A stretch of DNA of 54,507 bases, from the IMG/VR virus record IMGVR_UViG_3300020045_002715, positions 1 to 54,507 of that record, one strand, 5' to 3'. How positions within the stretch are numbered: the first letter of the stretch is position 1; each line of letters starts with the position of its first letter. This document shows, piece by piece, positions 9,791 through 51,186 of the stretch. This DNA is from a virus (taxonomy: Duplodnaviria > Caudoviricetes). Position numbers and translations under genes: made by a program. Under the pieces are notes generated by a model. That model made no database searches. It saw only the letters and a list, made by a program, of their open reading frames with translations, and was not told the DNA's origin.

Positions 9791-9808
9791 ACGACAGGAG
9801 ATTCACAA

Positions 9809-29462: not shown

Positions 29463-30566
29463 ATGGCAATTAACGATACGACCGCGAACACGCTAAGCAA
29501 TTGGTTCACCACGGCGATTGGCGGTCAGAATACGGCTGCTACCACGCCCACCGCTGCGACAACTACTACGGCAGCGGCTACGCCCACGGCTACCAATTCG
29601 GTCTTGGCTAAAGCGGGATCGACTACGCCAGCGGCAACCACGGCGACTACAGCGACCAAAGCAACGCCTAGCGTTTCCTCTTGGTATGACCAAGTGACCG
29701 GCCGAAAGGGCGAGCAAGCTGGGATTGACTATTGGCAAAGCGCGCTTGATTCTGGCGCCAACGCCGATGACCTATATAAGCAGTTCGTTAAGTCCGCCGT
29801 CGATAACAACGATTACAACCCGAATACCACGCCGGCGCAGCTTGACCTTGATAGCCTGAAAAACCGATCGGTAACTAGCGGGCAAACGGTTAGCGGCCAG
29901 CTTCAGGGCTTGCTTGATGCGAACAGCGACTATATCCAATCGGCTCGGGATCGCACGCTACGCACGGCAAACGCTCGCGGGCTAACCAACAGCAGCATTG
30001 CAGCTAGTGCTGGCGAGGACGCCGCCTATCAAGCCGCCATGCCCATTGCTACGTCTGATGCACAGGTGAATCGTGACGTAGACGCATATAACGCCGCGCT
30101 GTATAACCAAGGCCTGATGTACAACACGGATGCGCAGAACGCTGCAATTACGAAAGATCGTGATTACATCAACCAAGCAAACGTATTGGCGCAGCAGCAG
30201 AGTGGGCAAAAAGATTTGGCGACACAGCAGATCGCCGCCGACAAAGCTAGCCAAACCGCTGCACTTGGTAGCCAGATGAGCATTGCGCAATTGCAAGCTG
30301 AAACGACTAAATACCAGTCGGACAAAACGGCCGCTAACTCGCAATACAACACTGATGCAAATACCAAGATTCAGGCCGAGCAAAACAAAACAACGCTGGT
30401 CAATAACATCATCCAGAGCGCCGAACTTTCGCCTGATCGTAAAGCCGAGCTTCTTAAACAGCTTGGCGAAACTGGCCTAGCATCGGCAATTTATGTTGCG
30501 GCTGATATTGCCAGCGATTTGCAGACTCCAGAAACTACTGTGCCGGGCAGCGATGGCGGCGGTTGA
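29463..30566 (+). CDS. Putative internal virion/ejection protein with a DUF4214-like segment
   Basis: Thr/Ala-rich N-terminus; WYDQVTGRKGEQAGIDYWQSALDSG; ANARGLTNSSIAA. Confidence 0.6.
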   Translation: MAINDTTANTLSNWFTTAIGGQNTAATTPTAATTTTAAATPTATNSVLAKAGSTTPAATTATTATKATPSVSSWYDQVTGRKGEQAGIDYWQSALDSGANADDLYKQFVKSAVDNNDYNPNTTPAQLDLDSLKNRSVTSGQTVSGQLQGLLDANSDYIQSARDRTLRTANARGLTNSSIAASAGEDAAYQAAMPIATSDAQVNRDVDAYNAALYNQGLMYNTDAQNAAITKDRDYINQANVLAQQQSGQKDLATQQIAADKASQTAALGSQMSIAQLQAETTKYQSDKTAANSQYNTDANTKIQAEQNKTTLVNNIIQSAELSPDRKAELLKQLGETGLASAIYVAADIASDLQTPETTVPGSDGGG

Positions 30567-33814: not shown

Positions 33815-35649
33815 TGGATAACGTAGAGCAAAAGATTGCCAAAGCTCGGGCTGCTGGATATGACGATGAGCAGATCGCGTTAAAGCTTGCGGAGACGCCG
33901 GGATATGCTGAAAAGATTAGGACTGCGGCAGCTAGTGGCTACTCTGCTGCCGATGTGGTCGCGCATCTTTCTGGCGGTAAGCGGGCCGATACTCAGGTTG
34001 CAGCAAACCCGGCTCCTACCGATAGTTTTGCTAATGGCGCGGGAAATTTCTTTTCTGGCATTGGTACTGGTATAGCGAACGTTGGGCGGGGCGTCAAGCA
34101 GCGCCTAGACGAAGGCGCGGCATATCTTGAGGAGGCCGTAGGAGGCCAGCGGATAAATGACGCCTTGGGCCTTAAAAGCGCCGCCGATATTAAGCGCGAA
34201 GGCCAATCTGCGATTGACCAAAGCCGCATTGATGATGCGCCGCTTTTGAATACTAAGGCTGGATCGGTTGGTAACTTCATCGGCAGCGCGATCCCTGCTG
34301 TTGCGGCTTCGTTCATTCCTGGAGGCCAAGGACTCGCCGGCTCCATTGCATCTAGCGCAGCGCTCGGCGCAGCTATGCCAACATCGGGCGATGAGTCAGT
34401 ATTGGGCAATGCTGCGCTTGGTGCTGCTGGCGGCGCTGCTGGATACGGACTGGCTAAAGGCGTAGCGCGAGTAATCAGCCCAAATGCCAGCGTAAATCCG
34501 CAATTGAAATTGCTCAAGGATGAGGGCGTAAATCCTACCATTGGGCAAGCTCTTGGGGGCATGGCTAGCCGCGTCGAGCAGAAGGCAACTAGCATTCCAA
34601 TCATGGGCGATGCTATCGTTGCTGCGCGTAGTAAGGCAATCCGCGAATTCAACAATGCGGCCATTAATCGGGCGACTGCACCGATTGGTGTAACGATCAA
34701 GGGTAGCGGTCAAGAAGCAGTCGAGCAGGCTGGTAACGCGCTTAGCCGAGCTTATGACGATACGCTAGCTAAAGTTCCTCTGGTCCCGCTGGATACTCAA
34801 TTCACCAATGGATTGCAGCGGCTGAATACCTCTGTTGCTAGCTTGACGGACCCAATGCGGACAAAGTTTGAATCGGTATTCCGCGATATCGTCATGGGCC
34901 GAATCCAAAACAGTGCGCTTACTGGCGATGTATATAAAGCCGTTGATAGCGAACTCGGCATGATCGCGTCGAGGTACGGTAAGTCGTCGCTTGCCTCTGA
35001 GGCAGAATTGGCTGAACGCGTATTCGATTTGAAGACTTTGCTGAAAGAGCAAATGAAACGAACGAATCCGCAAGTGGCCGCTGAACTCAAGGCAATTGAT
35101 ACCGGCTGGGCTAATCTTGTTCGCGTCGAGGGCGCTGCAAAATCTGCCAAGAACTGGGAAGGTGTATTCAGTCCAGCGCAGCTAAACATGGCTGTTCAGG
35201 CAGCAGACGATAGCGTTAGGAAACGTGCTGTTGCGCGAGGCACGGCGCTGATGCAAGACCTGGGAACGGCTGGCCAGACTGTGCTAGGAAATACCGTTCC
35301 AGATAGTGGTACTGCTGGACGTCTTGCGCTTGGAGGCGCTGGCCTTGCCGCTGGCTTTGCCTCGCCCGCCATCCCTATCGGCCTCGCATCTGGCGCCGCT
35401 GCATATCTGCCGCCAGTTCAAAAGGCCCTAGTTAGTGCTGTAAGCTCGCGGCCAGATTGGGCCATCCCTCTTAGCCAACGTGTGGCAAGAGGCGCTAGAA
35501 CGGCTGGCCTAGCGACTGCAACGGCGTTCAGCGCAGCGGATCAAGCTGCCATGCGCGAACGAGTCAACGCAGAACGCCAGCGTCTCCAACTTCAGCGCAT
35601 CGGAGACGCAACCACAATTGACGAGGCAATCAAAGCCGCCTCCGAGTAA
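33814..35649 (+). CDS. Large DNA ejection/transfer protein
   Basis: Repeated ARAAGYDDEQI / AAASGYSAADV N-terminus; Gly/Ala-rich; VPDSGTAGR. Confidence 0.7.
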   Translation: MDNVEQKIAKARAAGYDDEQIALKLAETPGYAEKIRTAAASGYSAADVVAHLSGGKRADTQVAANPAPTDSFANGAGNFFSGIGTGIANVGRGVKQRLDEGAAYLEEAVGGQRINDALGLKSAADIKREGQSAIDQSRIDDAPLLNTKAGSVGNFIGSAIPAVAASFIPGGQGLAGSIASSAALGAAMPTSGDESVLGNAALGAAGGAAGYGLAKGVARVISPNASVNPQLKLLKDEGVNPTIGQALGGMASRVEQKATSIPIMGDAIVAARSKAIREFNNAAINRATAPIGVTIKGSGQEAVEQAGNALSRAYDDTLAKVPLVPLDTQFTNGLQRLNTSVASLTDPMRTKFESVFRDIVMGRIQNSALTGDVYKAVDSELGMIASRYGKSSLASEAELAERVFDLKTLLKEQMKRTNPQVAAELKAIDTGWANLVRVEGAAKSAKNWEGVFSPAQLNMAVQAADDSVRKRAVARGTALMQDLGTAGQTVLGNTVPDSGTAGRLALGGAGLAAGFASPAIPIGLASGAAAYLPPVQKALVSAVSSRPDWAIPLSQRVARGARTAGLATATAFSAADQAAMRERVNAERQRLQLQRIGDATTIDEAIKAASE

Positions 35650-35660
35650 CCATTATCTCC

Positions 35661-35712
35661 TAGTCACTTCGGTGGCTTTTGTCCCTCTCCTTTACAGGGA
35701 GGGGGATTTTTT
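35661..35712. terminator. Tandem terminators at the late/early convergence
   Basis: AGTCAC-TTCG-GTGGCT-TTT and TCCCTCTCC...GGAGGGGGA-TTTTTT. Confidence 0.65.
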
Positions 35713-35987
35713 CGTTATTGGCTCCCACTCGTCACTATGGCCTAGCCTGTGATGGCGGCGCTTTGGCCCATGACCCTCTATATTCCTATCGCGTACGCTA
35801 CGGTAAAAACCAGCATAGCGGCCCTCGCGCATGTTTCTTGAACCAACCAAGCAAGAAAGGCTAGAATGCTCGATTCCTCCATATATATGAAGAACCATCC
35901 CATCAACAATTGGGCGAAATTTGTTCATCATCAATTGCAGTCTTTGATGTGATGCTTGCGCTAACAACTCAATTTCTTTTGCTGTAC

Positions 35988-36227
35988 TCATTTCTCATCC
36001 CCTAAAGCCAGCGCCTTCCGCAATTCCTCAATCTCGTCCATCGCCAACTCCACAGCCAAATCGGCGCATTCCCGCTTGCCACTTTTCCCCATGCGATCCT
36101 GCCAACGCTCAATTGGTACAGAGCGCGCCTGCTCTACCTCCATCGCCCAATCTACCAACTTGCGCCACGTAATCGGCGATACTATTACTCCGTTGTCTAG
36201 GTCTTGCTTGATTTGTGCAATGTTCAT
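35988..36227 (-). CDS. Hypothetical protein
   Basis: Coupled ORF at the end of the early operon. Confidence 0.6.
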   Translation of the reverse strand: MNIAQIKQDLDNGVIVSPITWRKLVDWAMEVEQARSVPIERWQDRMGKSGKRECADLAVELAMDEIEELRKALALGDEK

Positions 36228-36230
36228 TGG

Positions 36231-37097
36231 TTAGCCTTTCTTTACAGCGGCGAGAATGGCACGGAAATGATCGCGGCAGATTTTGCCCGCTTCTCCGCCG
36301 TCGAGCTTTCGGCGTGCGATTGGCGTATCGAAAGCTGCACGGAAGTATTCCGCTAGTTCGATCTGCTCATCACTTAGCCCTGCCTGCGCGCCGTTAGCGG
36401 GATGGGCGGCGAGGGCGCGTGCAGCGGCGGAATCAACTGGGTATAACCGCTGCACAGTGTCGATGGCATTATCCAGCGATTGCGGGTTTTCATGGCTCCC
36501 CACCAGTGCTTCCCCGACCATATCGTCCAATTCTGAATTGTCTCGGATATACCTGTAGCACGAAGCTTCAAGTGCTTCTTCCAGCGCCGCATCGCGCCCG
36601 CTATTCGGCTGCACGCTGGCGGCGACAAGCGCACGGCGGTGGCTTTTCTCTTGTCTGTCATACTGCTCTTTTGTGGCATCTATAAAGCCGATTCTGTTAT
36701 AAAAGACCTGATAAACAACATCATCGCCCTGCACTGGCGCAGCGGCTGGCACGGTGAAGTGGACCAGAACCTTTTGCGCAAACTTGATAAGCGCGTCTTC
36801 CATCAGACGATTTGGGATATCCCCTTTGAATCTGACGCCGCAATCATGCGCCAATTCCAGTGCATACACCTCATCGAATGGCCCTGCCTGCGCCGGTACG
36901 CTGGCGGCGCGCTGGGCAAGGGCGGCTTGCCATGAATTCCATGCTTCATCGACCCAGAACGAAGCATACCGGTGCGGAAGGTTGGGGTGGCGCGCAAAGC
37001 ACACGGCGGCATGCCGTGACCGAATGGATACCTCAAACGCCGCCCGCTCATCCTGCGGCAACTCCCCGCCCTGCTGTTTGTTGGTAGTGGTGGTCAT
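36231..37097 (-). CDS. Mosaic cassette protein A (linker-scaffold family)
   Basis: Starts MTTTTNKQQGGELPQDE after a GGAG RBS; shares five linkers with 42284-43084. Confidence 0.8.
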   Translation of the reverse strand: MTTTTNKQQGGELPQDERAAFEVSIRSRHAAVCFARHPNLPHRYASFWVDEAWNSWQAALAQRAASVPAQAGPFDEVYALELAHDCGVRFKGDIPNRLMEDALIKFAQKVLVHFTVPAAAPVQGDDVVYQVFYNRIGFIDATKEQYDRQEKSHRRALVAASVQPNSGRDAALEEALEASCYRYIRDNSELDDMVGEALVGSHENPQSLDNAIDTVQRLYPVDSAAARALAAHPANGAQAGLSDEQIELAEYFRAAFDTPIARRKLDGGEAGKICRDHFRAILAAVKKG

Positions 37098-37273
37098 GCT
37101 GCTCTCCCTGTATTTTTTGGTCCCTGCATAATCCAGCCAGCCGCCCATGCTTGCCGCGCCCACGTCGGCCACGACAAGCGCATGGCTCGCTGGTGGTTAA
37201 GCGACAGCCCGAGTGAATAGGCGCTACGGCCCATCGCCTCAAATGCCCGCTTTCCCGATGGCGGGCGCTTCAC
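37094..37273 (-). CDS. 59-aa protein with a ribosome modulation factor (RMF)-like pattern
   Basis: GTGA and ATGA overlaps on both sides; MKRPPSGKRAFEAMGRSAYSLGLS...ARQAWAAGW. Confidence 0.5.
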   Translation of the reverse strand: MKRPPSGKRAFEAMGRSAYSLGLSLNHQRAMRLSWPTWARQAWAAGWIMQGPKNTGRAA

Positions 37274-37983
37274 GGCTTCACCTCTGGCTGTGCTGGTGCT
37301 GCGTCTTCTTCTGACTGCCCGCTACTGTCGCAAGAAGAACATTCCTGCTCGGTTCCGATGTCAGCATCGCGCACCATCCATCCGGAGCCATGGCAAGCTC
37401 CGCATTCTGCTGGTGCTTCTGGTGCTGGTGCTGGCTGATGGCTAGCATTAATAAATGCAACCTCCAATGCAGCCTTAATAGCCCTTCGAATTATCTCTGG
37501 CTGTCCAAGCCGATAAAGATCCCCAATATTTTCTGCCGCCTCTACCATTTCATCAGTAACGCTCAGCGCCGCTTGCGCATGCTGCTGTGGGGCGACATAC
37601 GTTCCAGCATTAATTTGACCCATTTCATCCGGATTAAACCCACGGCCACACGGAGAAAGAAAATCGCCATGATCATTGCGGATGGAATCACCTACGACTT
37701 GAAACACAGGGCCGTGGATTTCTACCAGAGCCTTGTACATCTGCCTCTGGCTGTCCGACGTGAATTGCCCGTCAGGCTGCATCTTTAAGCCTTTCAGGCC
37801 ATTATGTGCTTTGTCTGTGATAGCAGCCACGGCGTGGTCCGTGTGAGTATTAATAAAACTTACAATATCGCTAAAAGGCTCCGCGCATCGCCCTGTAGTT
37901 TGCGTAACACGTGAGTATTGACGCAAAAGCTCAGTCAACTGTTTGCTATCCACCGTCTCAGCCTGCTTCAAATCGTTGTTCAT
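37270..37983 (-). CDS. Mosaic cassette protein C with C-terminal CxxCxGxG zinc finger
   Basis: AGGAG RBS; QHAQAALS linker shared with 43081-44301; CGACHGSG..CSSCDSSG. Confidence 0.75.
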   Translation of the reverse strand: MNNDLKQAETVDSKQLTELLRQYSRVTQTTGRCAEPFSDIVSFINTHTDHAVAAITDKAHNGLKGLKMQPDGQFTSDSQRQMYKALVEIHGPVFQVVGDSIRNDHGDFLSPCGRGFNPDEMGQINAGTYVAPQQHAQAALSVTDEMVEAAENIGDLYRLGQPEIIRRAIKAALEVAFINASHQPAPAPEAPAECGACHGSGWMVRDADIGTEQECSSCDSSGQSEEDAAPAQPEVKP

Positions 37984-38140
37984 GTTCTCTCCTAGTAGGT
38001 GTGTTTGATTCGTAATAGTACAGCAATTATTTGCTACGTATGTGGACGATCTGCAACAAATGCACAAATTAAATATTTCCTATAAGTTTGTGCTATATTG
38101 ATTCCTGAAGTAAACAAACCACAACACAAAAGGTAACGAC

Positions 38141-38416
38141 ATGACTAAAGCAATTCTCACCCCAGCACAGACCGCCATGGCCGACAAAAACGACATCATC
38201 CTTAACTGGTTGATTGACCATTTGCGGCTGAAAAACGACGCCGCACTCGCCCGTATCATGGATTCCGCCGCGCCGGTCATTTCCAAGATGCGCTACGGTA
38301 AGCTGCCGTTTGGCGCCGTCTACCAAATCCGCGCGCATGAACTCACCGGCCTGTCGATCCGCGAGATTAAAGACATGATCGGCGAGAAGTCGCTTGCTCG
38401 GATTGTGCTTGATTGA
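38141..38416 (+). CDS. XRE/Cro-like HTH protein in an oppositely oriented island
   Basis: LKNDAALARIMDSAAPVISKMRYGKLP..HELTGLSIREIK. Confidence 0.75.
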   Translation: MTKAILTPAQTAMADKNDIILNWLIDHLRLKNDAALARIMDSAAPVISKMRYGKLPFGAVYQIRAHELTGLSIREIKDMIGEKSLARIVLD

Positions 38417-38468
38417 CGCTCGGCAACGGAGTAAAGTAAGCCCACAGCAGTCTTAACCGGAGAGCGCC

Positions 38469-38618
38469 ATGGAAGTCATTACCCGCCCAGCAAAAGAAGC
38501 CGTACGCCATTGGCTTGCTGACCGCCGTGTTGCTGGCGCTCCTCCTCCTACTCCAGAACAAATCAGGCGCGAGCTTTCGTGGGGTATGACTGCCGATAAG
38601 CAAAGTTCCACAAGATAA
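38469..38618 (+). CDS. 49-aa small protein
   Basis: GGAG RBS; MEVITRPAKEAVRHWLADRR..PPPTPEQIRRELSW. Confidence 0.6.
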   Translation: MEVITRPAKEAVRHWLADRRVAGAPPPTPEQIRRELSWGMTADKQSSTR

Positions 38619-38744
38619 AGCCCGGTATTTGCAGCAGACAGAGCTGTACCGAGACGGGTAAATCTCGGTGACATAATCCCCGCACGCGCTTGCGGTTCTG
38701 TTGAGCGAGAAACCGCGTTAGCTGATCTGCACCAAGCGCGCAAT

Positions 38745-38779
38745 AAAAAGCCCCGACATTTGATAGTGTCGGGGCTTTT
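38745..38779. terminator. Bidirectional intrinsic terminator
   Basis: AAAAAGCCCCGACA..TGTCGGGGCTTTT. Confidence 0.85.
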
Positions 38780-38795
38780 GCTTTATGCCTAGAAT

Positions 38796-39167
38796 TTACA
38801 GTTTGATGCGATCAAGCAAGTAGCGCAAGCTGATGTTGTTCTGCTCAATAAATAGTACAAACCCAGCCAACTGATTGCCCATCGGAGAAGAAGGCTCTCG
38901 GCCATTTCCGATAGCTGCGCCACTAGTTGATTCTGGTGCCGATGGCGGCATTACTGGCGACAAACGTTGATGGAGGTTTGACAGCAACTGCGCCGTATCT
39001 GTAAGCGCGCTTTCTAGTCGGTCTATTTGCTCGGGGATTTCCTGAACGTGCGGCTTCTTACTTTCGCAGTATTCTGCCTGCCCGAATTGCCCACGTGGCA
39101 TCGGTGATTGCCCCACAGTCTGCGATCCAGCGAGAAATCGATTTAGGTGACACGCATCTTCTTGCAT
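38796..39167 (-). CDS. Hypothetical protein
   Basis: AAGGA RBS; coiled coil ..LHQRLSPV.. Confidence 0.6.
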   Translation of the reverse strand: MQEDACHLNRFLAGSQTVGQSPMPRGQFGQAEYCESKKPHVQEIPEQIDRLESALTDTAQLLSNLHQRLSPVMPPSAPESTSGAAIGNGREPSSPMGNQLAGFVLFIEQNNISLRYLLDRIKL

Positions 39168-39213
39168 TGTAATTCCTTTCAATTGCGCCACTCAACCGGA
39201 GCGGCTACGGATA

Positions 39214-39411
39214 CTATTCTTCCCTAGGAGTCTTCCGCCTATCCGCCACGCGCCTATCAGGCAATCCGCTAGCCTGGTAGGGAAGGTCAAGCTTACGCCT
39301 GTCGCGACTCTCCTGCCTAGCTGCCATGCGTGCGTCAATGGTAGCCATGAGTTTGTCGATGTAGTCACGCTGCTCTTGCGTGGCTGATTCGTAGGCTTCT
39401 TGCGAGTTCAT
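39214..39411 (-). CDS. Small protein with repeated DRR motifs
   Basis: SRDRRK..PDRRVADRRK. Confidence 0.6.
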   Translation of the reverse strand: MNSQEAYESATQEQRDYIDKLMATIDARMAARQESRDRRKLDLPYQASGLPDRRVADRRKTPREE

Positions 39412-39866
39412 TTTACCTCCACGCCAGCGGCGGTAAGGGCCGCGAGGCCAGCTTGATATGCATCGCTGCTTTCGAGGTCAATCCAGTAAAGCATACTTGT
39501 GCATTGTTTCAAGGCATCTACTAACTGCGCATTAGGAGCAGAATTGGCATTAATGTAGTTGATAATGCCTTGGCGGGCCGATTGATACTCATCCGCGTTG
39601 TATTCTTCGCAGGAGCTTTCATGCGAAAACTTATCAAGCAGGGCCATAAATTCGGGAGTGTCAATTCCTGCATCGCTCATCGCCTCTTTAGGCGGCTGAG
39701 AGGCCGCTTTAAGATCAACCAGCGTGCGCGTTACCTCGTACACTTCGATAGGCCCATCCTGCTCGTATTGGGCCGCATAGTGTTTGATTTCGTTGAGCGC
39801 GTTGCTTCCCATAGTGCCAGCTACGCACATATCATCCTGCCATACTTCAAATTCTCGGTCGTTCAT
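39408..39866 (-). CDS. Hypothetical modular early protein
   Basis: Coupled ORF. Confidence 0.65.
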   Translation of the reverse strand: MNDREFEVWQDDMCVAGTMGSNALNEIKHYAAQYEQDGPIEVYEVTRTLVDLKAASQPPKEAMSDAGIDTPEFMALLDKFSHESSCEEYNADEYQSARQGIINYINANSAPNAQLVDALKQCTSMLYWIDLESSDAYQAGLAALTAAGVEVK

Positions 39867-39878
39867 TCCGCTCCCCCT

Positions 39879-40451
39879 TTAAGTACGTGCGCGGATAGCT
39901 GCGGCGGCGCCCATCAGCACAGCCATGTTCATTGCATCAAGATTCTTTTGCGTCTCGCATACCTTTGCTGCGGCTTCACGCTCGGCAAGCACGGCGGCGC
40001 GGGCGTAGGCGCGAACCCAATCGATCAACTTTTCATCGTGGCCGCCTTCAAAACCGAATTCAACCAGCCGGGAAAGAATTTTGCCGAAGTACTGCGAGTT
40101 GAGGGCTTCATCGATCTGCGTCAGCGACAGAGCTATGTCTTTTTCCGGGAGCAGCCTAGCGGCCTGCCATGCCATCCATGCCGCTTGATCGGAATCATCG
40201 ACATAGGACCCATCGTGGCGGCGAATCATGTATTCGTCATCAGTGATGTCCAACCGAAGCATTTCACGCTCGAACAGCGTGCGCTCGCCGTCAACTGGTT
40301 CCGGCAGCTCCCCTACCGCACCATTAGCAGGAGAGGGAGTGGCGATAGCTTCGCAAATTGCGTCAGCCAACAAGGCACGATTTGATTCTGTCGCGCCAGA
40401 CGTCCACAGTACGCGGTCGATGACAGCGCGAATCTTTTGGTCTTGTCTCAT
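39879..40451 (-). CDS. Modular early protein
   Basis: PANGAVGELPEP, ERTLFE..AAWMAWQAA, AEREAAAKVCE..AAAIRAR modules. Confidence 0.7.
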   Translation of the reverse strand: MRQDQKIRAVIDRVLWTSGATESNRALLADAICEAIATPSPANGAVGELPEPVDGERTLFEREMLRLDITDDEYMIRRHDGSYVDDSDQAAWMAWQAARLLPEKDIALSLTQIDEALNSQYFGKILSRLVEFGFEGGHDEKLIDWVRAYARAAVLAEREAAAKVCETQKNLDAMNMAVLMGAAAAIRART

Positions 40452-41188
40452 GCTTTTTCCTTTGCCATAGCGTTGATAGCTCCGATGAAGTCGTTGAATT
40501 CATTTTCGTTGCCCGACATTGCACAGGTTTCGATGATCTTGAAGCGCCGGCCGTGCGCCGCGCCGGGGATATGCCCTGTGCGCAAAACGCGCTCAAACGT
40601 TCGCCAGTTCGCAGCATCCCGCGCCACATCACCCGCTTGCTGTGCGACTGGTTGCTGGGCGGCATAGAGCATGCGCGTTTCATATGGCCCACCGCCGTCT
40701 TCGGGATCTGGAAAGCCGTCATACCAGTCAGAACAACCACACTTGCGCCATTGGTTGATCTGCCCCACCGCTTCCACTTGCTGTATTGGCTGCGCATCAG
40801 CCAACTCCTGAAATGCCGACAGCAGATCATGAACGGACAGCGTGATGCGCCGATCCTCAATGTCACCGACAGCGTCCATGTGTTCGATATTCGTACCGAG
40901 AAAATCAATCACGTCTTCCGGCGTGCTTGGAAGCGTTGGCATGGCTGGCTGTTCGACAGAAGCGGATTGACCAAGCTGATATGCGAACCACACAGCATCA
41001 AAGCTGGCAAGGCGGTACTCGCCCATAGCTACCTTGCGAGCAGCCTCAACGGTTGCATTAAGCTCACCACGCTGCTCTGCCGCTTTGCAATGCGTGCAAT
41101 CAAGATCGCCGCCCGTCCACTTTGACAGCGAGCCTGTATCAAGGCACGCAGCGCACCGCGCTTCCATTGGCGTTACTGGGGCGGTCAT
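40448..41188 (-). CDS. Modular early protein with N-terminal zinc finger
   Basis: CAACLDTG..CTHC; YETRMLYAAQQP. Confidence 0.7.
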   Translation of the reverse strand: MTAPVTPMEARCAACLDTGSLSKWTGGDLDCTHCKAAEQRGELNATVEAARKVAMGEYRLASFDAVWFAYQLGQSASVEQPAMPTLPSTPEDVIDFLGTNIEHMDAVGDIEDRRITLSVHDLLSAFQELADAQPIQQVEAVGQINQWRKCGCSDWYDGFPDPEDGGGPYETRMLYAAQQPVAQQAGDVARDAANWRTFERVLRTGHIPGAAHGRRFKIIETCAMSGNENEFNDFIGAINAMAKEKA

Positions 41189-41364
41189 TTTGCACCCTTA
41201 GCGGCACAAAACACAACGCCTTCGCGAGTATCTGCCTTGTCATACTGACGCTTCCATTCTTTTGCTGCTGCTTGGCAAGCAGCTTGCGTATTGAATTCAA
41301 CGCTTCCAACGGCAACGCCTTTTGCGTTAAACCCGACCATTGCGACAACCAAAATGTAGATCAT
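41185..41364 (-). CDS. 59-aa putative exported/membrane peptide
   Basis: GGAG RBS; MIYILVVAMVGF..EFNTQAACQAAA..FCAAK; ATGA overlap with the next gene. Confidence 0.6.
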   Translation of the reverse strand: MIYILVVAMVGFNAKGVAVGSVEFNTQAACQAAAKEWKRQYDKADTREGVVFCAAKGAK

Positions 41365-41408
41365 TGCTCACTCCATATGATGCTGGCTAACCAGCGTTTA
41401 GATGATTA

Positions 41409-41437
41409 ATCATACCGCAGCAATTATCCGCACGCAA
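41409..41437 (-). promoter_or_regulatory. Promoter with GCGGATAA motif
   Basis: TTGCGT-17 bp-TATGAT. Confidence 0.65.
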
Positions 41438-41491
41438 GACAAATAGCTAAAGTAGCGCAGAAACAACAAAGCCCGACTAGCGGGCCTTGGA

Positions 41492-41722
41492 TCAGCGTTT
41501 CATGCAGGTTGCCGTTACCTTGGCCGACTTGTTTAGCGCCAGCATCTGCGCTTGCCTGAGCGGCAGGCCGATCCGCTTCTGGTTGTAGCAGCCGAGCCAG
41601 TCGGACGGCGGCTCAAACTGCACGTACACATGCGGGTAGGTCAGCGCCTCGCCTGATGGGCCTTTAGCCGGGCCAGTAGCCAAGGTGATGACGTAGACCA
41701 GTTGCCAAAGTGAGAGTGTCAT
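41492..41722 (-). CDS. Small putative exported protein
   Basis: Hydrophobic N-terminus, two Cys. Confidence 0.55.
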   Translation of the reverse strand: MTLSLWQLVYVITLATGPAKGPSGEALTYPHVYVQFEPPSDWLGCYNQKRIGLPLRQAQMLALNKSAKVTATCMKR

Positions 41723-42039
41723 GGCTGGTCGCCTCCTGCCGCCTTGACGCGTGCTAGCTTACCCTCGGGCCAGGCTGCAACCTCGGCCTGCGCGCTGGCT
41801 ATCTGCTGGGCTAGCGTGGAGGGAGGTACAGTTTTAATCCCGTCGAATTCGACAGAATTGGAAGGCACTACTGGTTCGCTAGGCGCTTGAGACGCATCAG
41901 GCAACAGCGCCATGATGGCAGCGTGCATGCGCTCGGGGCTGTCGCCGCGCTGACATGCGCGGTAGATCACTTCCAAGATCGCGTGGCTGATGACGCTTTG
42001 ACCTTCCAGCGTCGCCGGAAATTTGTTGTCGGTGCTCAT
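41719..42039 (-). CDS. Hypothetical protein
   Basis: Coupled ORF; SNSVEFDGIK module. Confidence 0.6.
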   Translation of the reverse strand: MSTDNKFPATLEGQSVISHAILEVIYRACQRGDSPERMHAAIMALLPDASQAPSEPVVPSNSVEFDGIKTVPPSTLAQQIASAQAEVAAWPEGKLARVKAAGGDQP

Positions 42040-42041
42040 GC

Positions 42042-42284
42042 CTATCCTTCCTTCTTCTGTGGTGCGGCGGCGGGATCAGCTTCGGACCAGCACAATTTCC
42101 TGGAATAGCTGCTTGGCATACGCTTTACCCGTCCAGTTTTTTCCATCGCCTTCAAGCGCCTCAACACGAAAGCGGTGTCGAGCGCCTTGAATCCCTTCTC
42201 GCGCCTGAGAATGTTAGCGATGACGTAGGTCATCAAGCGGCCGTACATCGCCGCGACGATTTGATCGTCCGTTGGCTTCACCAT
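42042..42284 (-). CDS. Small winged-HTH-like protein
   Basis: MTYVIANILR..TAFVLRRLKAMEKTGRV. Confidence 0.6.
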   Translation of the reverse strand: MVKPTDDQIVAAMYGRLMTYVIANILRREKGFKALDTAFVLRRLKAMEKTGRVKRMPSSYSRKLCWSEADPAAAPQKKEG

Positions 42285-43084
42285 CACGCGCCGCCTTTCT
42301 GTGCAGCAGCAACAGCAGCGTCACGGCGCTCGCGCCAGTCGCCGCCGATGGACGATTGGGACTCGACCAGCAGGTCCAACAGTACGGATTCCCCTGCCTT
42401 CGCGCCGTTAGCGGGATGGGCGGCGAGGCGATGGGCGGCGATTTCCCTGAGCATGGCTTCCTCACGTGACGTTCTGCCGTCCAAGTAGGCGCGCTCTTTT
42501 GATAGACCAGTATGCCAGGGCTCCACCAGCGCCGCATCGCGCCCGCTATTCGGCTGCACGCTGGCGACTTCCATCCACGCAATCCACGCTTCGTTGACCC
42601 ATGACAGGGCGTACAGGTGCGGTAGGTGGGGATGCCTATCCAAACTGGCGTATTGGTTCCTGCCTCTGATGTGCTTCTCGAACCTCTCGCGGGCATCGCC
42701 CTGCACTGGCGCAGCGGCTGGAACAGGGGCGGTGTAGAGCGCCCATTGCCACACTAGGCGCGTGAATTCATCACCCAGCGGGTTGCCTTTGTACTTGCGA
42801 TTGATGTTGTACATGACCTCGCGCAAATGCTCGTCAGTCATTTCTCGCGGGACGAGTTTCCACCCCTCGGGCTCTGCTGCAGGCTGCTGCACTCCCTGCG
42901 CCGGTACGCTGGCGGCGCGCTGGGCGAGATAGGCGCGGGCGTATTCGGCCATCTGGTCAGCGGTATAGCCGGCTATTGCATACGGGCGCTCGTCTTTGCT
43001 TCGCATTGTGGCGTGACAGGCCGGCAGCGGCGGCAGCTCATCCTGCGGCAACTCCCCGCCCTGCTGTTTGTTGGTGCTGGTCAT
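42284..43084 (-). CDS. Mosaic cassette protein B (linker-scaffold family)
   Basis: MTSTNKQQGGELPQDE; shares five linkers with 36231-37097. Confidence 0.8.
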   Translation of the reverse strand: MTSTNKQQGGELPQDELPPLPACHATMRSKDERPYAIAGYTADQMAEYARAYLAQRAASVPAQGVQQPAAEPEGWKLVPREMTDEHLREVMYNINRKYKGNPLGDEFTRLVWQWALYTAPVPAAAPVQGDARERFEKHIRGRNQYASLDRHPHLPHLYALSWVNEAWIAWMEVASVQPNSGRDAALVEPWHTGLSKERAYLDGRTSREEAMLREIAAHRLAAHPANGAKAGESVLLDLLVESQSSIGGDWRERRDAAVAAAQKGGA

Positions 43085-44301
43085 TGTTTTTCTCCAGTAG
43101 CTATAGCGGCGTCAACAGCGGAATCCAAACCACTCTTAGGCCCCGGCGTTAAGTTAATACTTTCAGGATCATCGCCGATATGCTCATCACGAAGGTAACG
43201 ATACCGTGCCGCCTCGCGCGTTATATCCGGCTGCGCTGGTACCGCGTCTAGTTCAACGCCGCAATGCGGGCAGTCGCCATCTGCATCAGCGCGCTGCTCG
43301 GGCGTATAGGGTTTTTTGCAACTCCAACATTTCAGTACGGCCGCTGGTGCTGCGGCTGGCCGATGGCTGGCGGCGAGGATGGCAGGAATTAATTCAGACG
43401 GCAAAACCATATCCCACGCCCCGTATCCAACCCCAACAGCAGTTTCAACCGACGAGACAATCTCGTTGATCTGCTCATCGCTCAGCGCCGCTTGCGCATG
43501 CTGCGGTGGGGCGGCTGGCTTGGCTTCTTCGATCACTTCCAGCGCTTCGGCCCATGGGCAATTCACATTGCTGTGCTCGCCGATGTCGCGCCCGAAATAC
43601 TTGGTGATGGCTTCGGCCAGCTTGTCGGCCCATTCGTGATACTGTTCACGGTCGCGGATCGTTTGGTCCCATAGGTCATCGTCGGACGGGCGCATTTCAA
43701 ACACTGGAACAGACTTCCATTTCCCCGCGCCGTCAATGTCGCCCTGTGCACGCGCATCATTGATATGTTCCTGTGCGCTTTGATGATCCGGCGTCACAAA
43801 CTCAGGATTGCCGCGCTCATCAATTATCACAAAAGCGAAAGGCTCCGCCGCATCCACCGGTTCCGCTGGCGTGGCCGGTGCTGCATCTTCGCAGCGGCCC
43901 AGTGGATTGCGGCAACTTTGCGCATCGCATGCGGCTGGGTTGTCGCATGACTGAGGCGAAGAGTCGCGCTTGATCGCCCCCATAACGCTCTCTACCTGCG
44001 CATCGGTGATCGCTGGATTATAGCGGCGTAGATCGGCTGGCGTGTTAGGCTGCGGCTTGGCCTGAAGTGCCGCCAGTTCCAGCGCCAGTTTTCCGTAGGC
44101 GGCTTGCGACTGCTCAAGCGCAGCCTGCAAGCGCTCTGCGTCACTCTGCGCCTGATTGTGCAGGTCCAGCAGCTTTGCGTTGATGTCACGCTCGGCCGAC
44201 AGTTCGGATTCCTGGCGGCGCACCAAAGCGATTACTTCTAATGCCTCAGCTTGCTTGAGCATCCCATGCGTAGCCCATTCCTGATATTTGTCTAAGTTCA
44301 C
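43081..44301 (-). CDS. Mosaic cassette protein D (coiled coil plus modules)
   Basis: QHAQAALSDEQI linker, CWSC..CPHC finger, EAARYRYLRD..LDSAVDAAI terminal module. Confidence 0.75.
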   Translation of the reverse strand: MNLDKYQEWATHGMLKQAEALEVIALVRRQESELSAERDINAKLLDLHNQAQSDAERLQAALEQSQAAYGKLALELAALQAKPQPNTPADLRRYNPAITDAQVESVMGAIKRDSSPQSCDNPAACDAQSCRNPLGRCEDAAPATPAEPVDAAEPFAFVIIDERGNPEFVTPDHQSAQEHINDARAQGDIDGAGKWKSVPVFEMRPSDDDLWDQTIRDREQYHEWADKLAEAITKYFGRDIGEHSNVNCPWAEALEVIEEAKPAAPPQHAQAALSDEQINEIVSSVETAVGVGYGAWDMVLPSELIPAILAASHRPAAAPAAVLKCWSCKKPYTPEQRADADGDCPHCGVELDAVPAQPDITREAARYRYLRDEHIGDDPESINLTPGPKSGLDSAVDAAIATGEKQ

Positions 44302-44534
44302 TTTGCTTGCTCCTCAATAGTTATTTCGTTGGCTGCAATAATCTCAGGATTTCCGCGCAGATACACCCATGTTTTCAGCGCGCTACTGTGCGGATCGTCG
44401 CTGCGCTGGAACTGCTGGATAAAGTACGGCTTACCTTTGTACATCACAGGGTGCGCGTGTTCGTGCGCTTTAAGAAGAAGCCGAGCATGGTTGTACTCGG
44501 CTTCGGCTGGGGTAACAGGGTTCGGTTTGTTCAT
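44298..44534 (-). CDS. Hypothetical protein, possibly leaderless
   Basis: ATG lies 5 nt downstream of a predicted -10 box. Confidence 0.6.
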   Translation of the reverse strand: MNKPNPVTPAEAEYNHARLLLKAHEHAHPVMYKGKPYFIQQFQRSDDPHSSALKTWVYLRGNPEIIAANEITIEEQAK

Positions 44535-44539
44535 GCGTA

Positions 44540-44568
44540 ACTATGCCACAGTAATTATCTGCGCGCAA
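44540..44568 (-). promoter_or_regulatory. Promoter with GCAGATAA motif variant
   Basis: TTGCGC-17 bp-CATAGT. Confidence 0.55.
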
Positions 44569-44570
44569 GG

Positions 44571-44969
44571 TCAATCGTAGAATTTTACGCCCTGCTGTGC
44601 CCCATACGCAACGCAATACTCGATTATGCTGCTCATCCTGGAGATGGTCATAGTGGCCGTAGACTCGCGGAGGTTGACTGGCTCACCCTCAATTCCGATA
44701 ACGAATTGCGGCTCGTTACCTGTAGCTACAGTATGAGCGCTAACCATGAGAACTTTCCACTGTTCAGGCGTCAGGAATTCTTCGTTGTAGCGCAACTGCT
44801 TTGAGAACTCGCCAAAGATCGCATGAAGCTTTGCGGACTGCTCCAGCGAACGTTTGGACGGTCCTAGCGTAAAGCCGTAACCTATCGGGCATGTGCGAAC
44901 TGCATCAACGGCCCGCGCTCGCACTTGTTCGTTTATGATGACGAACGGCCTTTTTGTGCCGTCCGACAT
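44571..44969 (-). CDS. ninB: NinB/Orf family recombination protein
   Basis: KRSLEQSAKLHAIFGEFSKQ..EQWK..ESTATMTISRMSSIIEY..GVKF. Confidence 0.85.
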   Translation of the reverse strand: MSDGTKRPFVIINEQVRARAVDAVRTCPIGYGFTLGPSKRSLEQSAKLHAIFGEFSKQLRYNEEFLTPEQWKVLMVSAHTVATGNEPQFVIGIEGEPVNLRESTATMTISRMSSIIEYCVAYGAQQGVKFYD

Positions 44970-44970
44970 G

Positions 44971-46104
44971 TTAATACTCTATCCTGACGTTAGCCACCTT
45001 GCCTTGCGCAATCAGCATCACGCACTGCTTAGCGCATTCCTCAGTCATGCCGCCAGCAACCAACGATGCCAGTGCTTCGCGGTTGATCTTGGCTTTGTGC
45101 GCTTTGTTGCGCTCGCGGGCCGCTGCTTCATCAGCAATCCGTTTTGCCTCTGCCACTACTCGGTCTTTCTCGTCCTGAACGGCGCGTTGCTTGTCGGCTT
45201 CGGCTTTTGCTGCTGCCGCTGCTTGCTGGCGCTTCGCCTCATCAGCTTCAGCAATACGGCGTTGCTCGGCCTGTTGCGCTTGAATCTTTAGTTTCGACTC
45301 GCGCAGTGCTGCCGCCTCCTGCTCGGCTAGTGCGCGGTCACGTTCCTGCTTCAATGCGAGGGCCGCAGCGGCTTCTTTGCGCTCTGCTTCTGCCTTGGCA
45401 TCAGCGATAGCTTTTGCGGCCTTAGCGGCTTCCTGCGTCGCTTTCTCGGAAGCTTCGCGCTGCGCCTGTTCGGCTGCGGCTTTGGCAATTGCTGCATCAC
45501 GGTCTGCTTGTGCGCGCGCCTCTGCCTCTACGCGTAACCGTGCAAGCTCTGCGGCTTCCTCGTCACGCTTGATGAGTTCCGCCAACCGCAACGAAAGACC
45601 TTCAAGCGTATGTGCTTTCTCTTGAGTAGCATCCGCCATAAATTCTTGCCAGTCGGGTCCAATTTCGATTGCGGTCACGCGCTCAATTTCGGCTTTGACT
45701 TCTTCAACCGTATTGCAAGCGGCGCCAGGAAACGCTGCCATACGCGCATTTAGCGCATCGATTCGCTCCTTCTCTCGCGCCGCCATTTCGTCCAAAGGCT
45801 TTTGGTGGACTTCGATCATTGCTTCAATGCGTTCCTCGATAGATTCGGCTTCCGAATCGATGGCGCGGCCAATACGCAACGATTCGGCTTTAGCTTCCTT
45901 GCGGACCCGCTCAAGCGCGCCCTTGCTCTTACGGAGGCTAAAGATATGGCTGCGCGCCTCCTTTTCGCCTTTCTTGGATGCATAGTCAAAAACTACAGCC
46001 GCATTGTCTTTTTCAAGCTGCACAAGCTCCGTGTAAAACTTCTTGTAGCCGGCCACTTGCGTAGTATCGGCATTCAGCACTACAACTGCGGTTTCTTCGG
46101 TCAT
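44971..46104 (-). CDS. Coiled-coil protein of the recombination module
   Basis: Long Ala/Glu/Lys heptads; HKAKINREAL..IAQGKVANVRIEY C-terminus. Confidence 0.75.
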   Translation of the reverse strand: MTEETAVVVLNADTTQVAGYKKFYTELVQLEKDNAAVVFDYASKKGEKEARSHIFSLRKSKGALERVRKEAKAESLRIGRAIDSEAESIEERIEAMIEVHQKPLDEMAAREKERIDALNARMAAFPGAACNTVEEVKAEIERVTAIEIGPDWQEFMADATQEKAHTLEGLSLRLAELIKRDEEAAELARLRVEAEARAQADRDAAIAKAAAEQAQREASEKATQEAAKAAKAIADAKAEAERKEAAAALALKQERDRALAEQEAAALRESKLKIQAQQAEQRRIAEADEAKRQQAAAAAKAEADKQRAVQDEKDRVVAEAKRIADEAAARERNKAHKAKINREALASLVAGGMTEECAKQCVMLIAQGKVANVRIEY

Positions 46105-46105
46105 T

Positions 46106-46864
46106 TTATGCTTTCAAAATAGTTAAGTTGTTTACTACCATTTTTTCAAATGCCTCTAACTGCAAGGCCATTTTGTCAATGAATTCGTCGTCGCGCATGA
46201 TGCGCTTCACGTACAGGTCTTTGCCGCACTTAGCCAGCATTGGCGCATACATGATGAAGTCAAGCCACTTGCGGCCCGTCAGCCACATGCCGCCTTGGAT
46301 TTGGTGGATGTACTCGCTAACGTCACCAGTGCGCCACATTGCCATGATTTTGACGCTGTCAATCGGGGCCTTAATTTCAATCAGGCCATCGTCATCAACA
46401 AGGCCATCGGAGCTATACGCGAAAACACCGTCATCATCAACGCACAGGCCCGACTCGGTAACGAACGCTTGCGTCCTGGCTTCATAGTGCATGCGCGCCA
46501 AGGCTTCCATTTCGTGGCCGCGCTCAAGCACCCACGCTTTAGCCGGCTCTTGGAACGGGCCTCCGTTGATGCGCTCAAAGGCCAGATCGGCTGCGTAGCG
46601 CTTGGCCGTATCCGAAGGCTCTACAGTCAACTCGCCGCGAAGTGCGCGCTTGACCGTATCCGAGCTAGGAGCGGCCTTGTATCCAGCAAAGCCGATAGCC
46701 TCTTTCTCTGGCATCCCGCCAAGCACAGCATCAACGTACTTCTGCTGGCGCTCATCCAAGCCGCCAACTGTGCTGATGGCATCGGCATAGCAAGAGGCGG
46801 TTATTAGGCCCGATCTGGACTGAAACCAAGCAGGCGAACCCTGTAAGCACTCTATAAACCTCAT
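46106..46864 (-). CDS. YqaJ/lambda-exonuclease family 5'-3' exonuclease
   Basis: QGSPAWFQSRSGLITAS, ERGHEMEALAR, YSSDGLV..LIEIKAP, QIQGGMWLTGRKWLDF. Confidence 0.92.
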   Translation of the reverse strand: MRFIECLQGSPAWFQSRSGLITASCYADAISTVGGLDERQQKYVDAVLGGMPEKEAIGFAGYKAAPSSDTVKRALRGELTVEPSDTAKRYAADLAFERINGGPFQEPAKAWVLERGHEMEALARMHYEARTQAFVTESGLCVDDDGVFAYSSDGLVDDDGLIEIKAPIDSVKIMAMWRTGDVSEYIHQIQGGMWLTGRKWLDFIMYAPMLAKCGKDLYVKRIMRDDEFIDKMALQLEAFEKMVVNNLTILKA

Positions 46865-47670
46865 GGCTGGCCTTTCGTGCGCTGTGCATCCAGTTCTTCA
46901 TCGGTAGGCTTTGCTACTGGTGGCGGTGCCGGGAATTCAGCCTTACGCGTGGATACAGCCGCTTTGAATTCTTTGTATGCCCGCTGATCGCCAACGGCTT
47001 GGATTGCACCAACGCCGGATGCCCACACAAGCTCCAAGTCTTTCAAAGTTGGCGCGGCTTGAGCTTTGGCAATCCAGTTATCCGCCAAAGTGGTATCAAG
47101 CTCCGCAGCATGTCCATCATCATCGGACTGATCTTTAGTCGCCACGCCAGTAGCCGCGAGGAGCGTGTACCGCTGCAAATACGTGATGGTAGAGGCAATC
47201 TGCTGAATCTGGTTCTTCTTGCCGCTGTCGTCCTTCTGTGCGGTCATAGGCGTGCTTTCGCTATGCCCCTGCTTGTGGGTCAGTACGCACGTTACGGTGA
47301 TGTTTGCACCGCTCTGGTCAATAGTCCAGCGGTGGCTAAAGCCATGGGCTGCAAGGCCCGCTACGATGGCCTCTGTGACGTTACCGATGGTTGCATGCAT
47401 GTAGCTAGTGCCAGAGAACGCGACCAGCTTATCTTTGACGATTTCAGGCGGATTCTTTTTGAACTCGGCCATATCAGCAACAAATGCCTTGCGTGCTTCG
47501 TCGGCATCAAACTCGCGCTTGAGCATCATAAACTCGCGCACTTCGGCAATCGTGGCGCCGTTTTGCATTGCATACACAAGCAAATCTGCCGGCGTGGTGC
47601 CATAGCTCTTTTGCTGTACTAAAGGCAAAGCTTCGCCCTGCTGGTCTACCAGTTGCATTTCGTTTGACAT
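46861..47670 (-). CDS. ERF family single-strand annealing recombinase
   Basis: YMHATIGNV, VTCVLTHKQGHSES, QQIASTITYLQRYTLLAATGVAT..DDDG. Confidence 0.88.
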   Translation of the reverse strand: MSNEMQLVDQQGEALPLVQQKSYGTTPADLLVYAMQNGATIAEVREFMMLKREFDADEARKAFVADMAEFKKNPPEIVKDKLVAFSGTSYMHATIGNVTEAIVAGLAAHGFSHRWTIDQSGANITVTCVLTHKQGHSESTPMTAQKDDSGKKNQIQQIASTITYLQRYTLLAATGVATKDQSDDDGHAAELDTTLADNWIAKAQAAPTLKDLELVWASGVGAIQAVGDQRAYKEFKAAVSTRKAEFPAPPPVAKPTDEELDAQRTKGQP

Positions 47671-49632: not shown

Positions 49633-49817
49633 TGCGCGTTGAATGGAATCGCACCGCCTCATACCGTGACGCTACCGCAGCGCGCACGCCATCACCAGCG
49701 CAAACGTTTCTCTGCTGCCGCTGCCATATCGGACGCGCAATCGTCGGGCGCAGAAAAGTCGGCCAAGACGGAAACCGGATTCAGTGGGCATGTGCTACTT
49801 GCGCGGAGAAGGAATGA
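49632..49817 (+). CDS. Small zinc-ribbon protein
   Basis: CCRC..WACATC. Confidence 0.6.
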   Translation: MRVEWNRTASYRDATAARTPSPAQTFLCCRCHIGRAIVGRRKVGQDGNRIQWACATCAEKE

Positions 49818-50545: not shown

Positions 50546-51186
50546 TGGCGCTCAAACAGAAGACGCCACTGACCCGTAAAGCGCCCATGCGAGCATCGGC
50601 TGTAGTGAAGGAGGCAAAGCCGGCGCCAGGTCCGCGCAAGGTTCGGTGCAAGGTTTGCAAATCGCAGTTCCTTCCGTCCGCGCCGTGGATCAAGCATTGT
50701 TCGGAGGATTGCGGCGCAGAGCTTGGTCTGATGCTGGTGGCGAAGCAGAAGGCTAAAGCACAGAGGCAGGAACGCGCAGAGACGAAGGCAAAACTGATAG
50801 AGCTGGAGCCTTTGGAGTATTTCCTAAAGAAGGCTGAGAAGGCCTGTAATGCCTATATCCGAGCGCGAGACGCCGGGAATGGCTGCATATCATGCGGCCG
50901 GCATGATGCCGAACAATGGAACGCGGGGCACTTTATCAGTGTTGGAGCAAACCGTACTTTACGCTTTGAAGAAGACAATATTCACCTGCAATGTGCGAGG
51001 CCATGCAATAAAGATAAGGGAGGGAATAGCATTGAATATCGCAAAGCTCTTGTCAAAAAGATAGGCGTTGATCGTGTCGAATGGCTGGAAGGTTGGCACC
51101 CAACAGTTAAGCGTACACGTGAGCAGGTTGAAGCAATCGAAGCACACTACAAAGAGAAACTTAAACAACTCAAGGAGCATCAATGA
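50545..51186 (+). CDS. ninG: NinG/Rap family recombination endonuclease
   Basis: CKVC..CSEDC; NAYIRARD..CISCG..NAGHF..LRFEEDNIHLQCARPCN. Confidence 0.9.
   Translation: MALKQKTPLTRKAPMRASAVVKEAKPAPGPRKVRCKVCKSQFLPSAPWIKHCSEDCGAELGLMLVAKQKAKAQRQERAETKAKLIELEPLEYFLKKAEKACNAYIRARDAGNGCISCGRHDAEQWNAGHFISVGANRTLRFEEDNIHLQCARPCNKDKGGNSIEYRKALVKKIGVDRVEWLEGWHPTVKRTREQVEAIEAHYKEKLKQLKEHQ

Follow-up and report, generated by a model that had tools for sequence, protein, structure and literature searches.

Ordered in-frame linkers conserved at the DNA level join predicted mini-domains in two early accessory genes of a phage genome

Phage genomes carry huge numbers of small early genes to which no function has been assigned, and the origin of new ones is poorly understood. 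Classical modular theory proposed that conserved 'linker' sequences stand at the borders of modules; clear natural examples of such linkers are, to our knowledge, few. The closest described systems, for which we draw on extracts of the papers cited, are the gp38 adhesins of T-even phages, in which hypervariable segments lie between conserved glycine-rich motifs and a limited palette of segments is exchanged between phages with crossovers mapped near the motifs (Trojet et al., 2011, PMC3157838), and the promoter-early stem-loop (PeSL) cassettes of T4-type phages, in which conserved elements flank small accessory genes and mediate their modular shuffling (Arbiol et al., 2010, PMC2839356). Related to these are the Rad52-like phage recombinases, Erf included, whose relaxed recombination on short and diverged homology gives rise to mosaics (De Paepe et al., 2014, PMC3945230), and the lambdoid exo-xis or 'ea' accessory region, which includes the three-domain Ea22 protein (PMC10834534). 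Here, we describe a locus in a 54,507-base stretch of DNA, referred to as the window, which is the complete virus record IMGVR_UViG_3300020045_002715 (Caudoviricetes) with direct terminal repeats. Two genes of its leftward early operon, designated A and B, each encode five small cassettes joined by the same five linkers, and, judged from their sequences, both appear to be bead-on-a-string fusions of unrelated mini-domains on an ordered linker scaffold rather than drifted duplicates. The system works like the gp38 and PeSL systems but belongs to neither.

36231-37097, minus strand: gene A, 288 amino acids, five cassettes joined by linkers L0 to L4
42284-43084, minus strand: gene B, 266 amino acids, five cassettes, same linkers L0 to L4; its ATG overlaps the stop codon of gene D
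43081-44301, minus strand: gene D, 406 amino acids, directly upstream of B; carries L5 and L6
37270-38067, minus strand: gene E, upstream of A, start codon uncertain; carries L5 and a conserved C-terminal tail (37272-37306)
37038-37091 in A and 43028-43081 in B, minus strand: L0, 54 nucleotides, 91% identity, 13-codon core identical at 39/39 nucleotides; N-terminal leader
36881-36920 in A and 42889-42928 in B, minus strand: L1, 40 nucleotides, 93%, core 30/30
36722-36752 in A and 42694-42724 in B, minus strand: L2, 31 nucleotides, 97%, core 29/30
36581-36621 in A and 42526-42566 in B, minus strand: L3, 41 nucleotides, 100%
36378-36414 in A and 42392-42428 in B, minus strand: L4, 37 nucleotides, 97%, core 27/27
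43479-43513 in D and 37560-37594 in E, minus strand: L5, 97%
43342-43383 in D, minus strand: L6

At the DNA level, A and B match at exactly five places, all of which are linkers and all of which are collinear. Pooled over the linker cores, identity holds at 164 of 165 bases and at 54 of 55 codons, where codon usage predicts 19.0 identical codons (P about 3e-25). Ala, Pro, Val, Gly, Ser and Gln make up most of the linker peptides, and as their codons are free at the third position, selection at the protein level cannot explain the identity of the DNA; in an L1-like peptide that occurs by chance near 50493, the codons are quite different. The cassettes that fill the intervals between linkers are unrelated in A and B, the sole exception being one mini-domain that stands out of register. 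The locus therefore offers a clean and quantifiable case of in-frame linkers, with frozen synonymous sites and with joined domains that are either unrelated or anciently diverged.

Synonymous sites frozen beyond the reach of protein-level selection, together with the G+C-rich composition of the linkers, would also fit DNA or RNA that is kept for a job of its own, be it as a binding site, as an RNA processing or pausing signal for domain folding, or as a nuclease target. We regard this as quite unlikely, since the linkers comprise at least seven different sequences without a common motif and their RNA folded no better than shuffled sequences (z-scores of -0.66 to 0.72, six linkers tested). In addition, no Rfam family fell on any linker, the sole hit in 35500-44700 lying elsewhere and far below threshold, and promoter-like and terminator-like sites occurred at background level with none on a linker.

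As in gp38, short in-frame motifs stand in strict order, and the segments between them differ among relatives and recur in new combinations. However, the glycine-rich motifs of gp38 are thought, in the portion of the account cited, to form the structural core of one receptor-binding domain with the variable parts as loops (PMC3157838), whereas the linkers of the window are Ala/Pro/Gln/Val-rich joints between whole mini-domains, belong to early accessory genes and not to adhesins, and are also common to phages whose DNA is otherwise dissimilar. With the PeSL cassettes the locus has in common that short conserved DNA elements lie beside accessory modules of unassigned function. PeSLs are described as intergenic units of a sigma-70 promoter and a stem-loop terminator by which whole genes are shuffled (PMC2839356), whereas the linkers are translated in frame, carry no stem-loop, promoter or terminator signal, and separate domains within proteins; the nearest counterparts in the window are conserved tails with a stop codon and ribosome site at 42042-42070 and 39408-39430. 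The placement in an early leftward operon, downstream of recombination genes and with small or modular proteins of poorly known function, recalls the lambdoid exo-xis/ea region. A and B are, however, outside the Ead/Ea22 family (A, B and C gave no match to PF13935 at E <=0.1), and conserved linker DNA is not mentioned in the extract of the account of that region (PMC10834534). The relaxed recombination of the Rad52-like enzymes, as far as the cited text goes, concerns homology from common descent and not a standing set of ordered in-frame joints (PMC3945230).

The features of shufflons and of diversity-generating retroelements (DGRs) are absent as well: no invertase or reverse transcriptase Pfam domain was detected among the 59 frames scanned, and the repeats are direct and reside in two separate genes. 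Ordinary paralogues would be collinear over their full length, whereas A and B have five DNA islands in common and their only related pair of cassettes is out of register. A literature search covering main texts returned the analogues named above, and none of the accounts describes a scaffold of in-frame linkers in genes of the early accessory type.

The out-of-register mini-domain was the observation from which the analysis started. The sequence-only reading had assigned the same unit to slot 1 in A and to slot 3 in B, with substantial nucleotide divergence, and a third, more distant version within a separate gene, here named C.

36915-37052, minus strand: mini-domain in slot 1 of A, residues 16-61 of 288, between L0 and L1
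42566-42700, minus strand: mini-domain in slot 3 of B, residues 129-173 of 266, between L2 and L3
39879-40451, minus strand: gene C, 190 amino acids, without linkers
40149-40292, minus strand: mini-domain in gene C, residues 54-101; taken by itself, this copy matches phrog_343 at E 0.003

The copies in A and B were found within 1-7 bases of the positions proposed for them. Their ungapped local alignment spans 39 columns with 20 identities, and its Smith-Waterman score of 110 was not reached by any of 20,000 shuffles (23.2 +/- 4.9, maximum 58), so that the similarity is clearly significant. In the DNA, 68 of 117 bases are identical (58%), and 18 of 39 at third positions. The same codon is used at nine of the 20 identical residues, where codon usage predicts 9.4, indicating that the two copies are homologous yet as old as synonymous sites can record; the nucleotide divergence is thus real and saturated. 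The copy in C is weak in pairwise comparison, its score being reached by 9 of 5000 shuffles against A and by 223 of 5000 against B. When a profile of 44 family members from outside the window was run on all 990 six-frame open frames, however, the best-ranking frame was C (E 4.7e-10), followed by A (3.9e-6) and B (0.011), with the next frame at 0.44. The third version proposed in 39879-40451 is therefore real, and by sequence comparison C would carry the canonical form, with the copies in A and B as a divergent subtype. With A slot 1, B slot 3 and the linker-free gene C, the unit occurs in three contexts within this one genome, which supports the proposal that cassettes are independent of position.

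An AlphaFold2 model of the A copy, based on a 50-row alignment, reached a mean predicted local distance difference test (pLDDT) score of 96.8 and a predicted template modelling (pTM) score of 0.75, with all 46 residues at pLDDT >=90. It consists of helices at residues 2-13 and 32-45 with a hairpin-like loop between them (bridge 21/29), suggesting that the mini-domain is a small, independently folding helix-hairpin-helix domain. Autonomous folding, for which a structure prediction of each cassette had been suggested as a test, is thus predicted for the A copy; full-length B was modelled poorly. A Foldseek search of the PDB with the A-copy model gave no match, and comparison with 48,161 chains by VIA-align gave a best Z of 3.7 and none >=5, so that no function was suggested.

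To place A and B among their relatives, 5.8 billion proteins were searched at E <=0.01. A gave 14 matches, including A itself and B, and B gave nine, five of which were new. With the exception of one labelled as a Duganella metagenome-assembled genome (MAG), these are unnamed metagenome proteins, and they have the same linkers with other cassettes between them. At the DNA level, five related contigs were available, two being confirmed out of 53 pattern matches to viral contigs and three out of at least 595 to metagenome contigs; the exact 41-base L3 had no match in viral contigs. A blastn comparison of the five contigs (53,433 bases in total) with the window yielded 39 matches. Linker or tail islands of 22-67 bases, 83-100% identical, account for 36 of them. 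Three are of another kind: 109 homologous bases of gene H at 79.8% identity, 603 bases of an HNH endonuclease gene at 93%, and a single 32-base match. The linkers are thus more alike than the best-conserved homologous coding stretch, that of gene H. DNA of L0 and L1 is present in contigs L007-L011. In L007, a phage of about 42% G+C, the two linker-bearing genes are held in an island of about 1 kb with 51-60% G+C (9500-10500), which fits a horizontal and seemingly recent acquisition.

The order of the linkers was examined in 33 proteins with seven linker cores taken from the window coordinates, two mismatches being allowed. All 20 proteins with at least two linkers kept the order L5<L6<L0<L1<L2<L3<L4. 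Parts of D type and B type, which are two genes in the window, form one reading frame in P0012, P0024 (contig L008) and contig L011. Each cassette has its best relative in a different protein. Cassette 2 of A is 93% identical to that of homologue P0004, in the same slot but beside unrelated cassettes, and cassette 4 of B is 97% identical to one in P0007, again beside unrelated cassettes. Cassette 5, the C-terminal one of B, matches P0020 near its N-terminus (89% identity, beside unrelated cassettes) and the slot-1 cassette of P0004 (69%), and so changes context as well. Cassette 2 of B is 63-78% identical to parts of P0016, P0017 and P0018, which are without these linkers. Clustering of 115 cassettes gave 14 families with at least two members, two of which contain only the near-identical P0005 and P0006; in at least four of the 12 informative families, members occupy different slots or flanks. 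With only five linker islands common to A and B and the best relatives of the cassettes scattered over different proteins, simple duplication followed by drift, which had been argued against from the slots of the mini-domain, is ruled out.

A more elaborate form of duplication has to be considered, in which the scaffold was duplicated within the genome to give the arrays D-B-I and E-orf-A, the cassettes drifted or were replaced, and gene conversion kept the linkers alike, with no exchange between phages. The two arrays are indeed parallel, each with L5 (in D also L6) in the upstream gene followed by L0-L4 in order, and the linkers recur as direct repeats at a distance of about 6 kb within a single genome, which makes conversion possible. 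However, the same linker DNA is present in five contigs that share almost nothing else with the window, and L0, L1, L5 and L6 of related phages are as close to the window as A is to B. Furthermore, the linker-bearing L007 has a quite different G+C content, and A and B do not have diverged cassettes but unrelated ones, each with a close relative in another phage. We therefore consider a process confined to one genome unlikely.

The same data bear on a possible artefact. The genome is derived from a metagenome, and repeats of 31-54 bases could confuse graphs of short k-mers, so that an assembler might have joined co-occurring related phages at these repeats; alternatively, low-complexity Ala/Pro runs might match by chance. 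The chance of either is very small: the record is complete with direct terminal repeats, the same architecture recurs in independently assembled proteins and contigs from several sources, and chance matching is excluded by the statistics and by the different codons of the L1-like peptide near 50493.

Frozen synonymous sites, sharing by otherwise dissimilar phages, an intact frame and a fixed order are together what would be expected of crossover points that are kept uniform by exchange. Candidate enzymes for such exchange are encoded at the head of the operon that holds A and B, where the recombination genes span 44571..47670 on the minus strand.

46861-47670, minus strand: Erf annealing protein (Pfam ERF, E 2.2e-14), start of the leftward early operon
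46106-46864, minus strand: YqaJ exonuclease (Pfam YqaJ, E 2.1e-14)
44971-46104, minus strand: phrog_1376 protein (PHROG)
44571-44969, minus strand: NinB/Orf (NinB, E 2.4e-32)

We consider it rather probable that the linkers serve as in-frame homology patches at which recombination by Erf, YqaJ and NinB swaps cassettes. Both exchange at the linkers and Erf as its driver are inferred. When two phages meet in one cell, annealing-type recombination by Erf, with the YqaJ exonuclease and NinB/Orf, would cross over inside a linker. One such crossover would swap everything downstream, two would swap a single cassette, and the reading frame would stay intact in either case. Repeated exchange would keep the linkers uniform while the cassettes remain old and diverse. 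Efficient pairing is stated to need a segment of at least 23-27 bp with Red-beta and of at least 31-34 bp with RecA, and on short or diverged homology an Erf recombinase is reported to be more active than RecA (extract of PMC3945230); with 31-54 bases, the linkers exceed the minimum quoted for Red-beta. The claim of the earlier reading that the cassettes are older than the linkers around them stands only in part, as the copies of the mini-domain did diverge long before the linkers were last made alike, but old linkers kept uniform by exchange would leave the same pattern.

Several points weigh against exchange at the linkers or narrow its basis. Crossing-over at ordered linkers leaves the slot change of the mini-domain, the very observation that prompted the analysis, unexplained. 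Linker DNA was compared in five related contigs, the other 17 homologues of A and B being compared as protein only. The match of the B copy to the external profile is marginal (E 0.011), the A and B copies by themselves match no PHROG at E <=0.01, and the 44 profile rows were picked by a profile that included the window copies, which brings in some circularity. Finally, the full-length model of B is poor (mean pLDDT 48.4) and shows neither flexibility of the linkers nor folding of the other cassettes.

Because crossing-over at ordered linkers keeps slots fixed, the fact that the mini-domain fills slot 1 in A but slot 3 in B calls for another, older event, which may have been illegitimate or cross-linker recombination or an independent capture. 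Such changes look rare, as the canonical unit lies between L0 and L1 in all seven related linker-bearing proteins that carry it. At their inner ends, L0 and L1 code for the first and last turns of the mini-domain helices, suggesting that both linkers grew out of the unit's own ends. In P0014, a hybrid linker at residues ~180-195 combines a first half of variant L2 with a second half of L3. It could be the footprint of recombination between different linkers, an event of the type that a slot change would require.

If the linkers are crossover points, they would explain how phages assemble combinatorial accessory proteins, cutting at the linkers would automatically delimit hundreds of unassigned mini-domains, and a natural design for modular protein engineering would be suggested. 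A wider reading holds that otherwise dissimilar soil-type phages share an ordered set of at least seven in-frame DNA 'addresses' as universal crossover points for annealing recombinases, and that whole mini-domains are exchanged between genes and phages with the reading frame always preserved. This is possible, though we lean slightly against it; if true, it would be nature's equivalent of linker-based cloning in the laboratory, or a counterpart to exon shuffling. As to function, the operon position allows the guess that A and B are host-takeover or counter-defence factors that act as independent beads, a doubtful assignment.

The mini-domain itself extends far beyond this set of linkers. A search of 1.84 billion representative proteins with a profile built from six copies gave 66 matches at E <=0.001, of which three are the window's own, two are false and 61 are external. 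The false ones, P0023 and P0025, are TIR/NTPase-TPR proteins that matched on the first ~20 profile positions only. By the coordinates of the hit table, the unit stands alone in seven of the external proteins (<=80 amino acids), occupies the N-terminus of 25 and the C-terminus of 14, and lies internally in 15, and is thus not tied to one context; the sequences of 30 of the 61 were read. Some large family proteins hold two or three copies. Free-standing members of 48-78 amino acids exist, and they match phrog_343 (positions 37-85) and the whole of the 47-position phrog_15836, neither of which has an assigned function. Across the 50-row alignment, F6, E7 and W41 (numbering of the A copy) are invariant, and R3, Y29 and Q42 are conserved at >=90%. 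No Pfam or NCBIfam family covers the unit. Weak tblastn matches (E 0.001 to 0.09) were obtained in 22 phage records with Salmonella, Stenotrophomonas, Xanthomonas, Burkholderia, Acidovorax and Escherichia as hosts, in all of which the match is annotated as hypothetical or the record is without annotation. On this sequence basis, the mini-domain would be a member of a widespread phage family of unassigned function. A protein-atlas search led to clusters of PF26207 (Phage_phiTE_015), with feature scores of 0.85 and 0.83 and a TM score of 0.87 over 50 residues. Membership in this Pfam family is a lead only, and in the full-text literature the name Phage_phiTE_015 was found in no paper.

P0031, a distant relative of the mini-domain, has a sub-threshold match to Ead/Ea22 (E 0.0053). 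P0036 and P0039 are unrelated multi-cassette phage proteins with repeated Ala/Pro-rich linkers of their own, one linker peptide occurring four times in P0036 and three copies of the mini-domain in P0039. The bead-on-a-string design accordingly extends beyond the present linker set. A C-terminal domain common to P0014, P0016, P0019 and contig L011 was considered as a MazG-like hydrolase; as neither Pfam nor NCBIfam supported this, the assignment was dropped.

That the mini-domain exists as a free-standing small protein in other phages would also be in line with A and B being polyproteins with the linkers as protease cleavage sites. Every linker follows a helix and is Ala/Pro-rich, and the phage encodes, at 4066-5379, a protein with a papain-family cysteine protease domain (Peptidase_C1, E 4.9e-15) and a DUF4214 domain, which might be the enzyme. 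Judged from sequence, this is highly improbable: cleavage sites would be conserved as protein and not codon for codon, the linkers are without a single recognition motif, and DUF4214 is present both in the protease and in a protein encoded among the tail genes (29463-30566). Cleavage could nevertheless be compatible with exchange at the linkers.

The junctions of the genes have conserved elements of their own.

37094-37273, minus strand: frame of 59 codons, just short of the 60-amino-acid threshold for frames, lying between E and A and overlapping both, with its GTG at the stop codon of E and its stop codon at the ATG of A
42042-42287, minus strand: gene I, 81 amino acids, phrog_9799, downstream of B; conserved C-terminal tail

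For gene A, the ATG at 37097 was chosen over an upstream GTG since a purine-rich, Shine-Dalgarno-like run precedes it, and the homologues P0004, P0007 and P0014 begin at the same residues. The overlaps at both ends of the 59-codon frame indicate that E, this frame and A are probably translationally coupled. By eye the frame bears a slight likeness to the mini-domain; it did not match the family profile and was rejected as a further copy. On the minus strand, the conserved C-terminal tails of I (42042-42070), G (39408-39430) and E (37270-37306) each end in a stop codon and hold a purine run that forms the ribosome site for the next gene, with overlapping stop and start codons. They recur as DNA in L007, L008 and L009, and P0004 and P0007 end with the same tail as gene I. 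These tails look like a gene-ending version of the linkers, which would explain why a cassette found as a free gene in one phage serves as a domain in a different one. If the shared-address reading is true, they would represent a further type of linker by which a cassette switches between free gene and fusion domain.

Genes A, B and C have no family in Pfam, NCBIfam or PADLOC, and A has none in PHROG. Together they occupy the distal accessory part of the leftward early operon, far from the structural genes. After NinB, about a dozen genes without assigned function follow down to ~35692, and a hairpin (35681-35707) marks the point at which the operon runs into the end of the rightward late genes. 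Other genes of the window with a recognizable domain include the following.

996-2360: DnaB (Pfam)
12170-13402: large terminase (Pfam), part of a podovirus-like structural module
16383-18641: SU10-type portal (Pfam), structural module
22644-23327: SU10 adaptor (Pfam), structural module
49784-50545: C5 methylase (Pfam)
50536-51186: NinG (Pfam)

Among cultured phages, a megablast search with 36000-44400 gave zero matches, as did tblastn with protein A, with protein C and with a protein of 815 amino acids. A search for related loci in one genome per prokaryote species gave 106 pattern matches with none confirmed and thus revealed no prophage relative; a related-locus search with protein A alone gave 10 pattern matches, again with none confirmed. 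Midway along the leftward operon, the other strand has a frame of 91 amino acids (38141-38416, plus strand) without a Pfam match. A similar-sized frame follows the cassette genes of L008, and the frame in the window might encode a small regulator.

No other DNA match of the window to a related contig comes near in length to that of the HNH-AP2 homing-endonuclease gene at 3368-3874, where positions 3312-3914 are 93% identical over 603 bases to positions 1771-2373 of contig L011. In L011 this gene immediately follows the multi-cassette gene of that phage, and it is probably a mobile gene common to these phages.

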